60,000 bases of DNA from Squalus acanthias (Eukaryota), in contig CM059431.1 of assembly GCA_030390025.1 (NCBI GenBank), positions 102,426,001 through 102,486,000 on the forward strand. Reading direction: 5' to 3'. Of the stretch, positions 20,732 to 59,405 are shown piece after piece. The notes under the pieces were generated by a model, which made no database searches, was not told where the DNA came from, and saw only the letters and a program-made list of their open reading frames with translations. Each line of letters opens with the position of its first letter. Within the stretch, counting starts at the first letter, position 1. Made by a program: the position numbers and the translations under genes.

Positions 20732-21523
20732 ATTATATTTGGTCCCCTCATCCAAATCATTGATGTAGATTGTGAATAGCTGAGGCCCAAGCACTAATCC
20801 TTGCAGTACCCTACTAATTACAGCCTGCCAGCCCGAAAATGACCCATTTATTCCTACACTGTTTTCTGTCCGTTAACCAATCCTCAATCCATGCTAGCAG
20901 TATTACCCCCAATCCCATGAGCCCGAATTTTGTTTATCATCTTGTGTGGCACCTTATCAAATGCCTTCTAAAAATCCAAATACACCACATCCACTGATTC
21001 CCTTATCTATTCTGCTCGTTACAACCTCAAAAAACTTGTCAAACACTATTTCCCTTTCATAAATCTGTGTTGACTGCCCAATCCTATTATTTTCTAAGTG
21101 CTCTGTTACCACATCCTTAATAGATTCTAGCATTTTTCCTACTACTGATGTCAGGCTAACTGGTCTGTAGTTTTCTCTCTCCCTCCTTTCTTAAATAGTG
21201 GGGTTACATTTGCCACCTTCCAATCCGCAGGAATGGTTCTAGAATCTATGGAATTTTGGAAAATGACAACCAAAGCATCCATCATCTCTATAGCCACCTC
21301 TTTCAAAACCCTAGGATGTAGGTCATCAGGTCCAGGGGATTTATCAGCTTTCAGTCCCATTAATTTCTCCAGTACTATTTTTTTTTAACTAATACTAATT
21401 TCTTTCAGTTCCTCATTCTCACTAGACCCTTGGTTCTCCACTATTTCTGGGAAGTTTTTTGCATCTTCTTCTGTGAAGACAGACACAAAGTATTTATTTA
21501 ATTTCTCTGCCATTTCCTTATTC

Positions 21524-21673
21524 AGAGGTCGCACATACCAGGTTATAGTCCAACAGTTTTATTTGAAATCACAAGCTTTCAAAGTGATTTCAAATAAAAC
21601 TGTTGGACTATAACCTGGTGTTGTGCGACCTCTCAATTTTGTCCACCCCAGTCCAACACCGGCATCTCCGCAT
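21524..21673. mobile_element. Penelope-like mini element, hairpin form with hammerhead core deleted
   Basis: ~50-bp inverted arms (21524-21572, 21584-21633); 13-bp TSD CATTTCCTTATTC; same family as 57788-58080. Confidence 0.85.
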
Positions 21674-24600
21674 CATTTCCTTATTCCCCATTATAATTTC
21701 TCCTGTCTCAGCCTGTAAGGGACCCACATTTACTTTTGCTAATCTTTTCCTTTTTACATACCTATAGAAGCTTAGTCTGTTTTTATGTCTCTCGCTAGTT
21801 TACTCTCATTCTATTTTCCCTCTAAAAAAATCAATTTCTTGGTCCTTTGCTGAATTCTAAAATCATCCCAATCCTCAGGCTTACTACTCTTTTTGGAAAC
21901 ATTATAAGCCTCTTCCTTTGATCCAATACTATCTTTAACTTCTCTTGTTAGCCACGGTTGGACCACTTTTCCTGTGGGGTTTTTGTGCCTTAAGGAATGT
22001 ATATTTGTTGTAAATTATGTATTAATTCTTTAAATGCTAGCCATTGCTTGTCTACTGTCATACCTTTTAATGTAGTTTCCCAATCTACCGTAACCAACTC
22101 GCCCCTCATACCTACGTAGTTTGCTTTGTTTAGATTTAAGACCCTAGTTTCTGATTTAACTAAATCACTTTCAAACTTAATATAAAATTCTATCATACTC
22201 TTCCCTAAGGGCCCCTTTACTACAAGGTTATTAATTAACCCTTTCTCATTGCACAATACTAGATCTAAAATAGCCTGTTCCCTAGTTGGTTCTGCAACAT
22301 ACTGATCCAGAAAACTATCTTGCATACATTTCATGAATTCGTCCTCCACACTATTACTGCAAATTTGGTTTGCCCAGTCTATATATAGATTAAAGTCCCC
22401 CATGATTACTGTATTACCCTTGTTACATGCGCCTCCAATTTCCTGATTTATACTCTGCCCTACATTACAACTACTGTTTGGGGGCCTATAAACAACTCCC
22501 ACCAATGTTTTCTGCCACTTGCTGTTTCTTAGCTCCACCCAAACCGATTCTTCTACTTGATTTTCGGAGTGAAGATCCTTTCTCTCTACTGTCTTTATCC
22601 CATCCTTTATCAGGGCTACCCCTCCTCCTTTTCCATTTTGCCTATCTCATCTAAAAGTTATGTATCCTGGAATATTTAGTTCCCAACCTTCGCCACTTTG
22701 CAACCACGTCTCCGTAATGGCTATTCGATCAAACCTAGTCATTTCTATCTGCGCTATTAATTCATCTATTTTGTTGTGAATGCTTCGCGCAGATATAGTG
22801 CCTTTAGCTTTGACTTATTTCTACTTTTCCTGATACCACCTTAGTCACTGACGCCCTATTACCTTTGTTACTCTGTCCCTTCCTGACCCACTCTGCTTAT
22901 TTTTACCCAAAACTCTGCTCCAGAGCCTTGACATTTCTCTCGTTGCTTTTAAATTGACTCTTTCCTGAATCCTCCCACCATCCCCCCCATTCATTAGTTT
23001 AAAGCCAAAACCACTTGTGTTCCTGTTTCCCGCGATCTTTCCGCTGATTCAAGATTCAATTAACGGCGAATCAGGGTCCCCCCCCCCGGTCGGCATTGTG
23101 AAATTCCGCCGATTGTGCTGGTTTGGGAAGGATCTTCAAATCGCGCTCATTTTCTTAGATGCACAGGCACCAGTTGGCACGCTTTTAAACATCTTTCATA
23201 TCAAAATATTTAATTTATTAAGAAACTGACTAGTGTACACCAATTAAATAGTTCAGTATAGTTTTAAAAAAAAGTCATGAGTATTTTAAAATCAGGTCAC
23301 TCAAGTGGAGGACTGGCCACTAATGCTTATTTCTGGTTATAAACCCATTTTCAGCTGTATTAATAAAACTGCATCAGGTTACCATTCTTAAATACATCAA
23401 GCAATACTTTTTAAAAAGAAAAAAGTTACGTTCTATTACGCTGCACGATTGCGCTGGTTCATTGATGAGCTGTCCAGTTTAGACCCACGTCCCAGCATTG
23501 ACCCCCCCACCCATAATAGCCCTGCAAATGAGTCCTCTACATGTATATGCCCAATTGCATTCCTCCAGGCATTATAGCAGCCATCCCACATAATGGACAA
23601 ATCGCGTTGGCACCAACACGCCCACTATAAAGTGGTGGGGACTGTATTAACAAAAAGTAGCATGCTTTCTTAAAACCACTGCAATTAGAATGCATGGTTG
23701 TCAGAAAAAAAATCAATTTCCTGCAAATTAGCTGTTGCAATAGTGCACTTCCCATAGAAAAAGGGGGGGGGAGAAAACCTTGCATTTATATAGCACCTTT
23801 CACGACCACCGGATGTCCCAAAGCGCTTTACAGCCAATGAAGTACTTTTTGAAGTGGTCACTGTTGTAATGTAGGAAACGCGGCAGAAAATTTGTGCACA
23901 GCAAGCTCCCACAAACAGCAATGCGATAATGACCAGATAATCTGTTTTTCGTGATGTTGATTGAGGGATAAATATTGGCCAGGACACCGGGGATAACTCC
24001 CCTGGTCCTCTTTGAAATAGTGCCGTGGGATCTTTTACATCCACCCGAGGGGACAGACGGAGCCTCGGTTTAACGTCTCATCTGAAAGATGGCACCTCCG
24101 ACAGTGTAGCATTCCCTCAGAAAAAGAAATACAATTCTCCCCCTTTCAGTTTCCCATACATTGCAATCTCAGGCATTGTAAAACTTGCAATTTTTAGCAT
24201 CTTGAATACCAGAGAAAAATGTGCATCATGGCACTCCTGTGTGAACTATTCCACCATGTTTTTCTCTTTCTAGCCGGAGACAGACGGGGGAATCCTTAAA
24301 TATTTCCCCGATACAAAATTTGGATCCCCCCCAAAAAATTCTGGATCTACCTACTCTGGGGAAAGGACAATTGGCAATTTAATGTAGGAAAAGCAGCAAC
24401 AAAAACACTAACCTCTTTACAAATATTTTGGTACAAACATAATCCTTGGTCAAACTGCTGAGCAAGTTGATGATCAGATAAACGAATCGTAACAGAAGCC
24501 CGAGCCAAATTTCCTGTTACTCACTTGTCAATGCCAAGTGTGCTAACGGCATTTTGAATAAGCGTGTTTGTTTAGTTTAGTGGAAACTCCAACCTTGGTG

Positions 24601-56570: not shown

Positions 56571-56677
56571 AGTTTTGTAACATCTGCATGATGTGTTCTT
56601 TTATCAGTGGAAGCACTACTTTACCACCAAGGCCACAGGCTATCCTGTCCAGGGCGCTTTCACCAGCCACAGCATTG
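56571..56677 (-). CDS. IPO5: importin-5 coding exon
   Basis: [35 protein letters not shown]; ag/gtgagt; 107 nt, phase consistent. Confidence 0.97.
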
Positions 56678-56984: not shown

Positions 56985-57510
56985 AACAATTTGCATTTAT
57001 ATAGTACCCTTAACATAGTAAAACGTCCCGCGGTGCTTCACCAGGAGTGTTATCAGACAAAATTTGACACCGAGCCACATAAGGAGATATTCGGACAGGT
57101 GACAAGAGGTAGGTTTTAAGGAGCTTCTTAAAAGGAGCGGAGATAGGTAGAGGGATTTAGGGAGGGAATTCCAGAGCTTAGGGCCTGGGCAGCTGAAGGC
57201 ACGGCTGTCAATGGTGGAGTGGTTAAAATCGAGGATGTGCAAGAGGCCAGAATTGGAGGCGCGTAGAGATCTGGGAGGGTTGTCATGCTGGAGGAGGTTA
57301 CAGAGATAGGGAGGGGCGAGGCCATGGAGGGATTTGAAAATAACAATGAGAATTTTTTTTAAAAAGGTGCTGCCAGACTGGGAGCCAATGTAGGTCAGCG
57401 AACACAGGGGGTGATAGGTGACCGGGACTTGGAGAGAGTTAGGATACGGGCAGCAGGGTTTGGATGAGCTTAAGTTTATCTAGGGTAGAAGCTGGAAGGC
57501 CGGCCAGCCA
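56985..57510 (-). mobile_element. L2 3' fragment
   Basis: Matches 4530-5065 and 14668-15180. Confidence 0.85.
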
Positions 57511-57874
57511 GGAGAGATTAAGTGGCAAATTATTTCAAAATGTCGTTTCCCTGATGACTTCTAAACTCTTGTACACTATGATTGATTTACCCATGGTAAA
57601 TGAACGGATATACGATTGAAGTAAATAAAGGACGCAGATGAAGATGTGGGACACAGATGGTAACTGGGATTTTTTGGGGTGCGGTTGGTGGAGTCCACTA
57701 GTTTCCTCTTGTGTACTTCCTGGCAACCAGTTAAGGGGGAATCAGCAGCAGCAGCCTGGGAGCTGGCTACCTGCCCCACTTATTCAGGATGCGGAGATGC
57801 CGGTGTTGGACTGGGGTGGACAAAATTGAGAGGTCGCACAACACCAGGTTATAGTCCAACAGTTTTATTTGAAA

Positions 57875-57917
57875 TCACAAGCTTTCGGAGCTATCGATTT
57901 GCTCCTTCCTCAGGTGA
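57875..57917 (-). ncRNA. minimal type I hammerhead ribozyme motif (mirror copy, sense to IPO5)
   Basis: Exact reverse complement of 57979-58021. Confidence 0.75.
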
Positions 57918-57978
57918 AGTAAATTAGATACAGAATCTCCAAATCTACAGGCTTTGGAGATTCTGTATCTAATTTACT

Positions 57979-58021
57979 TCACCTGAGGAAGGAGCAAATC
58001 GATAGCTCCGAAAGCTTGTGA
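57979..58021 (+). ncRNA. minimal type I hammerhead ribozyme motif
   Basis: TCAC-CTGAGGA-A-GGAGC(9 nt)GCTCC-GAAA-GCTT-GTGA. Confidence 0.75.
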
Positions 58022-58142
58022 TTTCAAATAAAACTGTTGGACTATAACCTGGTGTTGTGCGACCTCTCAATTTTGTCCACTTATTCAGCACAGGGTGTAT
58101 AAACTGAGAGGGGAACAAATCCCTTAAAAAGAAAAAAGAAAA

Positions 58143-58597
58143 ACAGACTTGCATTTATATAGCGCCTTTCACAGCCACCGGACGTCTCAAAGCACTTTAC
58201 AGCCAATGAAGTACTCTTTCCCCGCCCCCCCCCCCCCAGAAGTGTAATTACTGTTGTAATGTAGGAAACACAGCAGCCAATTTGCATGCAAGCTCGCTCC
58301 CAGCTCTGATAGTGAGCAGGTAATCTGTTTTAGCGATGTTGGTTGAGGGATAAATAGTGGCCAGGACGCCAGGAGATAACTCCTCTTGCTCTTCTTCAAA
58401 ATAGTGCCATAGAATCTTTTACTACCCCGTGAGGGGGCAGACAGGGCCTCGGTTTAACCTCAGACAGTGCAGCACTCCCTCAGCACTGCACTGGAATGTC
58501 AACCTAGATTTCTGTGCTCAAGTCCCTGGGGTGGGACTTGAACACACAACCTTCTGACTCAGAGGCGAGGGTGCTACCCACTGAGCCACAGCTGACA
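58143..58597 (-). mobile_element. tRNA-derived SINE with Deu-like core and L2-type tail
   Basis: A box TGGCTCAGTGG, B box GTTCAAGTC, core GGCACTATTT..GTCCTGGCCA, tail AGGCGCTATATAAATGCAAGT. Confidence 0.88.
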
Positions 58598-58864
58598 CTG
58601 TGAAAGAAAAATTACACAAGCATTACTGTTCAGCACAGTAACAATTAAGGTTGAGGATCTTGCCAATAGGCAAGAGCACTATTTTGCAATATAGTCAAAT
58701 ATCTATACTCTGACATCAAGCACAATAGCGCTTCGGTAGTCTTTACTCTTCTCTCAATGGATGACTATTACCCTTGGAAGACATTCGCTGCAATGGAATC
58801 TACTTATTATGCCACAGCAAAGAATTAAATAGTCACACAAGAAAGAATCAACCTTAGTACCAAG

Positions 58865-59140
58865 GTCCCGTCTGCTCTCAGGTGGACGTAAAAGATCCCA
58901 TGGCACTATTTCGAAGAGCAAGGGAGTTATCCCTGGTGTCCTGGCCAATATTTATCCCTCAATCAGCATAACAAAAACAGATTATCTAGTCATTATCACA
59001 TTGCTGTTTGTGGGAGCTTGCTGTGTGCAACTTGGCTGCCACGTTTCCTACATTACAACAGTGGCTACACTCAGTACTTCATTGGCTGTAAAGCGCTTTG
59101 AGATGTCCGGTGGTCGTGAAAGGCGCTGTAGAAATGCAAG
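58865..59140 (+). mobile_element. same SINE family, 5'-truncated
   Basis: GATCCCATGGCACTATTTCGAAG..GTGTCCTGGCCAA core and tail. Confidence 0.87.
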
Positions 59141-59317
59141 TTTTTTTTAAAATTAAGCCTGCCCAGTGCAAATCATTAATTGATCAGATTTTATGGTGCT
59201 GTTGTCAAATATAAATTAGGAACACGTCCAAATTACAGTACAGATTCCTTCTTGTTCATTTGATTTCAACCCCTACGGTTTTCCATAAAAAGCTAATTTT
59301 CATTAAATGCGAATTAC

Positions 59318-59405
59318 CTGTCAAAGTCATCATCTTCCAGTTCATCCGAATTTGACCAGTTTTCATCATTCTCTAAATCCACCATCATTGCCAGCATCTG
59401 TGGAA
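59318..59405 (-). CDS. IPO5: importin-5 coding exon (first in window)
   Basis: ag|TT CCA CAG..GAC AG|gt; [28 protein letters not shown] matches IPO5 acidic loop; 88 nt. Confidence 0.96.

Follow-up and report, generated by a model that had tools for sequence, protein, structure and literature searches.

An inverted insertion within an intron of IPO5

The window, a stretch of 60,000 nt from the 3.7-Gb genome of Squalus acanthias, contains exons of IPO5 on its minus strand, with matches to solved importin-5 at E values of 2.5e-25 and 7.8e-16. Exon ends read from the splice junctions delimit an intron of 2,640 nt (59317-56678, minus strand) that harbours a short insertion, 1.1-1.2 kb from both splice sites (Table 1). 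The importin-5 matches on either side of the insert and the splice junctions confirm the location given in a first-pass annotation of this DNA.

A repeat finder recovered two inverted arms of 128 nt each, the left one at 57816-57943, 100% complementary and separated by 9 nt, together with a 12-nt direct repeat flanking the insert, in agreement with that annotation. The element had also been called a perfect palindrome, which holds for the arms and not for the insert as a whole: the 289 bp lying between the two copies of the target-site duplication (TSD), at 57788-58076, are asymmetric, with a 28-nt tail at 57788-57815 that has no pairing partner in the insert. The pair is made of one tailed and one tail-less arm. 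The final 4 nt of the right arm overlap the right TSD copy, and the 9-base spacer includes 2 bases native to the element; base -157, considered as a hint that the arms had different templates, is indistinguishable from filler. The minus strand of the insert was predicted to fold into one 128-bp helix of -256.8 kcal/mol (z = -31), a value equalled by 0 of 100 shuffles.

Table 1. Features of the insertion and of its host intron in the window. Element positions (negative and positive) are counted from the start codon of the parent ORF; pLTR, pseudo-LTR.
Feature	Position	Strand	Basis
IPO5 exon downstream of host intron	56571-56677	-	matches importin-5 residues 333-371
TSD, left copy, 12 bp	57776-57787		repeat finder; insert skipped at the relative's empty site; family norm 12-14 bp
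Tailed arm, including 28-nt tail	57788-57943	-	156/156 identical to pLTR of intact element L049
Minimal type-I hammerhead, sense in IPO5 pre-mRNA; cleavage predicted between 57879 and 57878	57875-57917	-	sequence
Central junction	57944-57952		about 7 nt of filler, origin uncertain, and 2 bases native to the element; found once in the genome
Inverted tail-less arm, pLTR -156 to -33 (-29 counting 4 nt shared with TSD)	57953-58080	+	128/128 identical to L049 pLTR
Position -133, Inr-like, putative RNA start	57976	+ (mirror 57920 on -)	arm-end counts
Minimal type-I hammerhead, antisense to IPO5; predicted cut after 58017	57979-58021	+	sequence, isolated-motif fold, family variants
TSD, right copy, 12 bp	58077-58088		repeat finder
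IPO5 exon upstream of host intron	59318-59405	-	read from sequence, in phase with next exon

In a related species (organism B, run X6), 57782 and 58083 are joined directly in one contig with a depth of 2.2, which thus presents the empty site. Contigs of run X1, which may be the assembly's own sample, traverse both flank junctions without differences (57439-57809 and 58056-58162) and extend less than 31 nt into the element. Coverage by run X14 was confined to repeat sequence, and the portion read of a second sample, X5 (55%), did not reach the insert junctions. That the palindrome is a fold-back chimera of the assembly is hardly credible: the whole insert is spanned by no contig among the runs examined, but a fold-back artefact makes no TSD, one-sided tail or filler, and the clean X1 junctions and the relative's empty site both speak against it.

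An intact Penelope-like element carries the same pseudo-LTR

Locus L049 contains an intact autonomous Penelope-like element (PLE) with an open ORF of 892 aa that encodes a reverse transcriptase (RT) and a GIY-YIG domain. Its unit of 3,141 nt lies in partial tandem, with an inverted 5' part and a TSD; here and at locus L050 a truncated copy precedes the 3.14-kb unit, which is the pLTR partial tandem arrangement. The ORF matched RVT_1 (E 3e-8) and GIY-YIG at the curated cut-off, and the GxKF, DKG and YIDD motifs are present in the protein. The association of RT with a C-terminal GIY-YIG that characterizes endonuclease-bearing (EN+) PLEs was found on this parent, not on the IPO5 stump; the stump shows another EN+ feature, an inverted 5'-truncated copy with a single-ended tail.

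Considering the best 120 of 606 protein matches, the nearest named relatives of the L049 protein are shark proteins, at 80-94% identity. The protein has a CX4CxxC linker at residue 753, and two cysteines were read from its translation between the GIY-like and YIG motifs, where a strict pattern search gave no match. The available text of PMC8557442 assigns to Neptune and Nematis both a CCHH motif and a CX2-5CxxC linker that precedes the GIY-YIG domain. By motif, then, the linker points to Neptune/Nematis and the element would be of Neptune type; Penelope/Poseidon are described as lacking this linker. A fragment of a second, divergent RT-like ORF adjoins the intact element (L049:519-1019, minus strand).

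Both arms of the IPO5 insert are identical to the L049 pLTR over their full length. This identity bears out the Penelope-like origin that had been suggested, and the very young age was upheld as well; the empty site of the relative and the family norm show the 12-bp repeat to be a true TSD. The central junction has a single match in the genome at ≤1 mismatch, and therefore the insert was not copied as a unit. We regard it as nearly certain that the arms are identical to the parent pLTR, that a TSD flanks them, that the relative has the empty site, that the junction is unique and that a tail is present on one arm alone. The insert is, very probably, a dead-on-arrival, 5'-truncated, head-to-head copy of a young autonomous EN+ PLE, and the perfection of its arms would result from both having recently been copied from one template.

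The first-pass annotation had instead read the insert as a palindromic mini-retroelement that silences its own ribozyme; on that reading it would be a non-autonomous, retrozyme-like element in its own right, mobile as a unit. The absence of an ORF, the flanking TSD and the young age agree with this, as do the thousands of short palindromes obtained by extrapolation (see below) and an identical junction near -130/-133 that recurs in several loci (L041, L068, L069). A genome search for copies, of the kind that had been proposed as a check, nevertheless returned the IPO5 junction once, which refutes the reading for this copy, and the identical pLTR of L049 belongs to an autonomous parent that is still intact. 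Furthermore, the lengths of inverted insertions form a continuum from 150 to 5,162 nt, the recurrent junction falls on the -133 hot spot, at which repeated joins are to be expected, and tandem units such as retrozymes require in the available text of bioRxiv 10.64898/2026.07.22.740005 were absent. This makes the reading very improbable. Regarding named classes, the shared ends and interior of a non-autonomous mini-element or MITE were not found, the junction being unique, the lengths continuous and -156 no hot spot. Non-LTR retrozymes, as that preprint describes them, resemble the insert in being ORF-less, hammerhead-bearing and PLE-derived, but consist of head-to-tail tandem units, whereas the insert has two arms head to head and a junction found nowhere else in the genome; a retrozyme was thus rejected as well.

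Inverted copies in the shark family

Exact genome matches numbered 2,462 for a 41-nt pLTR word covering the hammerhead and 20,041 for a 39-nt word 3' of it, with 0 for the reversed control words. The first 100 listed places of the 39-nt word, from one contig end, included 32 head-to-head and 0 tail-to-tail pairs, a head-to-head share of approximately 48% of the insertions in this sample (32/~67). Eighteen of these pairs are as short as the IPO5 insert, or near it, which extrapolates to ~3,600 short palindromes genome-wide at a word spacing ≤300. The IPO5 stump is ordinary for its class, with thousands of such stumps in the genome.

A set of 51 inverted rows gave 49 insertions after removal of two duplicates, four compound or atypical loci (L016, L030, L065, L067) being excluded; 17 pairs came from the 39-nt word search and were chosen for short spacing. 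One arm only is tailed in all 48 insertions with both ends in view, the tailed arm reaching the start codon or a few bases beyond and the other arm ending near -23 to -43 (48/48). The longest string shared by the flanks, taken as the TSD, measures 12-14 nt in 45/49. Locus L016 (G000:C2295:191800-195340) is a compound of four arms with a 67-nt tandem array on its flanks, and one of its arm pairs differs in subfamily. In the window itself a second inverted stump of 150 bp, with a 13-nt TSD, was found at 21511-21686, below the last IPO5 exon seen (~27.9 kb).

An inverted pLTR, a one-sided tail and a TSD have been described for PLEs (PMC3846280; scheme in the Fig. 2 legend of PMC8557442). The inverted structure is therefore already known, and the shark family is a new member. 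The closest description concerns Pen2a of Adineta vaga, which is alike in its head-to-head 5'-truncated copy, single-ended tail of 30-40 nt, short TSD and TATA/Inr-like pLTR motifs, according to the available text of PMC3846280. Compared with canonical EN+ PLE insertions, as far as their descriptions go, both arms of the IPO5 insert are cut down to the pLTR end, the TSD of the shark family is 12-14 bp against 8-10 bp, and its copy number is in the tens of thousands. The literature covered, chiefly open-access main texts, contained no description of the shark family and no dual-priming model for PLE inversions, and the formation of tandem and inverted PLE structures is called undefined in the available text of PMC8557442. 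The IPO5 copy itself, a recent intronic stump among thousands, is of little weight. The family matters more: an intact 892-aa ORF and many young insertions allow the testing of a priming model and of the role of the hammerhead, and thousands of perfect 100-200-bp hairpins, some of them intronic, would be a large potential dsRNA load.

A fixed arm end at position -133

Across the genome, the base preceding -133 is non-native in 272 copies; the corresponding numbers are 15 for -137 and 15 for -120, which makes an 18-fold excess of arm ends. In a sample of 98 arms, part of which was selected for reaching -129, 27 terminate at -129 to -135. None of the 41 inspected -133 loci continues into native upstream sequence. 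Examined for the extra G of a cap signature, solo copies ending at -133 carry 0-3 extra G/C-rich bases, and the first letters of 100 listed -133 matches, counted by hand, were G in 40, C in 42 and A in 18.

The position lies 26-32 nt below a TATA-like run, with a TATA-like box at -165 to -159, and it fits the initiator consensus. Similar TATA/Inr-like motifs were noted in the pLTR of Adineta vaga Pen2a (PMC3846280, available text). We infer from these counts and motifs that -133 is probably the transcription start of the element RNA; it may alternatively be a strong RT stop. The IPO5 copy extends beyond -133 to -156, without the TATA-like box, and its template was therefore an RNA longer than one starting at -133. 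A further hot spot at -156 was discarded: the one allele searched gave 1 match.

How the inversion may form

The following route is proposed. The RT-GIY-YIG protein would cut both target strands, 12-13 nt apart, and each target 3' end would then serve as a cDNA primer on a shared sense RNA, at approximately -35 in one case and at approximately +2 to +10 of the ORF start in the other, these positions corresponding to the two internal start sites described in vitro. Both cDNAs of the IPO5 insert would have stopped near -156 and then been joined through a short filler. We give this mechanism, taken as a whole, slightly better than an even chance.

Three counts, all read from scars left in the genome, bear on it. 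The hammerhead variant is the same in both arms in 24/24 insertions (8 of them minor variants), versus 44% between insertions. The inner ends lie within 10 nt of each other in 9 of 14 insertions that were not selected for spacing and have both arms beyond -140; permutation gave a mean of 1.5 and reached 9 in 0/100,000. Among the 49 insertions the tail-less arm reaches further in 25 and the tailed arm in 7, with 17 level (sign test p = 0.002). In vitro, two RT start sites bounding the tail were reported, with extension of both strands and sense RNA as template, in the available text of PMC11167929. Dual priming on one sense RNA fits the three arm counts and these in vitro results, and it is the route that the arm geometry favours. 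Two RNAs from a single source locus, or later gene conversion, could possibly also account for the identity of the arms. The tail-less arms of L030 and L067, which end at -89/-88 and not near -35, count against a two-site mechanism.

The system of the in vitro work, PAc, a Poseidon of Anolis carolinensis, is alike in having two start sites that bound the tail and in the cutting and extension of both target strands. Its start sites lie ~111-118 nt inside the ORF, compared with near -35 and +2 to +10 in the shark family, and the available text of PMC11167929 offers no model for inversions.

Fold-back of the tailed cDNA requires a longer tailed arm and fails in 25/49. Fold-back self-priming on an antisense template was proposed for rotifer Penelope elements in the discussion of PMC3846280. 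It predicts the identical arms seen in 24/24, also fits the 25:7 asymmetry, the tail-less arm reaching at least as far in 42/49, and several junctions lie on short palindromes. We nevertheless judge it unlikely: the tailed arm is longer in 7/49, in three by 43, 1,757 and 2,384 nt; the peak of arm ends at a sense-oriented TATA/Inr-like site is not explained by it; and sense RNA was the template in vitro (PMC11167929, available text).

Twin priming on two separate RNAs held by a protein dimer, with cDNAs joined by microhomology, appears about equally improbable. In some insertions the two arms differ greatly in length (386/2143 and 1180/298, for example), and the protein is predicted to be a dimer extending both strands in the available text of PMC11167929. 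Against two RNAs, a single template more readily accounts for inner ends that match at a long distance from the start site (740/740, 1192/1196, 491/501) and for the arm identity in 24/24. In L1 twin priming, cDNA is likewise primed from the two ends of the target, and a 5' inversion flanked by TSDs results, the two cDNAs copying non-overlapping parts of one RNA; the arms of the shark insert, by contrast, copy the same stretch, which yields a palindrome.

Returning to dual priming on one sense RNA, a broader form of the proposal is that the thousands of near-identical inverted copies of this genome document how the inversion and the tail of PLEs arise, with a capped sense RNA that starts at an Inr, 30 nt downstream of the TATA box of the pLTR, two fixed internal priming sites ~35-45 nt apart and little trace of hammerhead cleavage in the inserted 5' ends. 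This we put forward tentatively, at somewhat less than an even chance. If true, the dual-priming reading would replace antisense self-priming, uniting the in vitro start sites with genomic structure.

The hammerhead motif

Read by eye, each arm contains the parts of a minimal hammerhead at the positions of the first-pass annotation. On the plus strand these are stem I (57979-57982/58018-58021), the core (57983-57989), stem II (57991-57995/58005-58009) and GAAA (58010-58013). Stem III (AAGCTT) is palindromic, as had been stated, although it amounts to a single A-U pair over a 2-nt loop and is no foldable stem. Each strand of the insert has one sense hammerhead only. The isolated 61-nt motif folds into stems I and II at z = -1.64 only. 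An Rfam scan of the arms gave no match to a hammerhead model, even at E ≤ 10, and generic hairpin matches alone, below the gathering score.

Among family variants, stems I and II are kept, with a compensatory pair change in stem II, while loop II and core position 7 vary; the invariance of GAAA was fixed by the search pattern. The hammerhead fold is thus conserved in the parent element. The motif is also alike to the metazoan PLE minimal hammerheads of PMC4209133 in being of type I, with a short stem I, a palindromic vestigial stem III and an unpaired base ahead of stem II. The available text of that paper reports opposite-strand pairs 100-700 bp apart and many single motifs from truncated PLEs, with no shark example among them. 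It also reports that a single minimal hammerhead did not cleave as a monomer and that dimers cleaved weakly. In the in vitro system of PMC11167929 (available text), cleavage required protein and was dispensable for insertion, the PAc pLTR hammerhead not being needed. A shark subfamily with a changed conserved-core base at position 4 (L070, L072, L077, L085, L086) still made TSD-flanked insertions, in line with dispensable cleavage.

The insert lies in a minus-strand intron, so the antisense arm comes first in IPO5 pre-mRNA, as had been claimed; the minus-strand fold likewise agrees with the 128-bp duplex that was said to hold the ribozyme, the motif being predicted as fully paired within this helix. 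The self-silencing layout that had also been claimed is a by-product: any head-to-head copy has the antisense-first order whichever strand is read, and the monomer was inactive in PMC4209133 (available text). A single minimal hammerhead would be expected to lack activity anyway, so that self-silencing need not be invoked. ADAR or Dicer, named in the annotation, may act on the duplex. The hammerhead would be a passenger, with one sense copy per strand, no dimer partner, predicted burial in a duplex and a copy without the TATA-like box. It would thus be silent in the insert as an accident of how the insertion formed, and in IPO5 pre-mRNA the insert is, on the predicted fold, most likely an inert intronic hairpin.

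Copies beginning exactly at -91, in the window (21.5 kb) and at L023, prompted a test of the ribozyme cut as a source of 5' ends. With -88 as the one control position, 200 ends at -91 versus 184 at -88 genome-wide showed no clear enrichment, and the cut was set aside as their source. Of 20 loci inspected at -91, 3 held solo copies starting there and 2 held continuous copies; stem-I microhomology joins accounted for 5, and other inverted joins for the rest.

Further ends were observed near the predicted cut. The tailed arm of the stump at 21511-21686 begins exactly at -91 and the ribozyme core is absent. In L030:1374-1546 and L067:956-1142 the stop of the tail-less arm, 3-4 nt past the predicted cut, lies directly against a 12-nt TSD and may mark a third priming site; the search yielding them was blind to ends at -92. 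In L092:121-165 and L099:128-167, continuous copies carry an additional 1-3 bases where the RNA is predicted to be cleaved; these may be scars of template jumping across cut RNA.

In the same IPO5 intron, another abundant repeat is represented by two older copies that face opposite ways (window 58140-58461 and 58859-59148). Pieces of them are 75-89% complementary, and they constitute a second possible intronic duplex.
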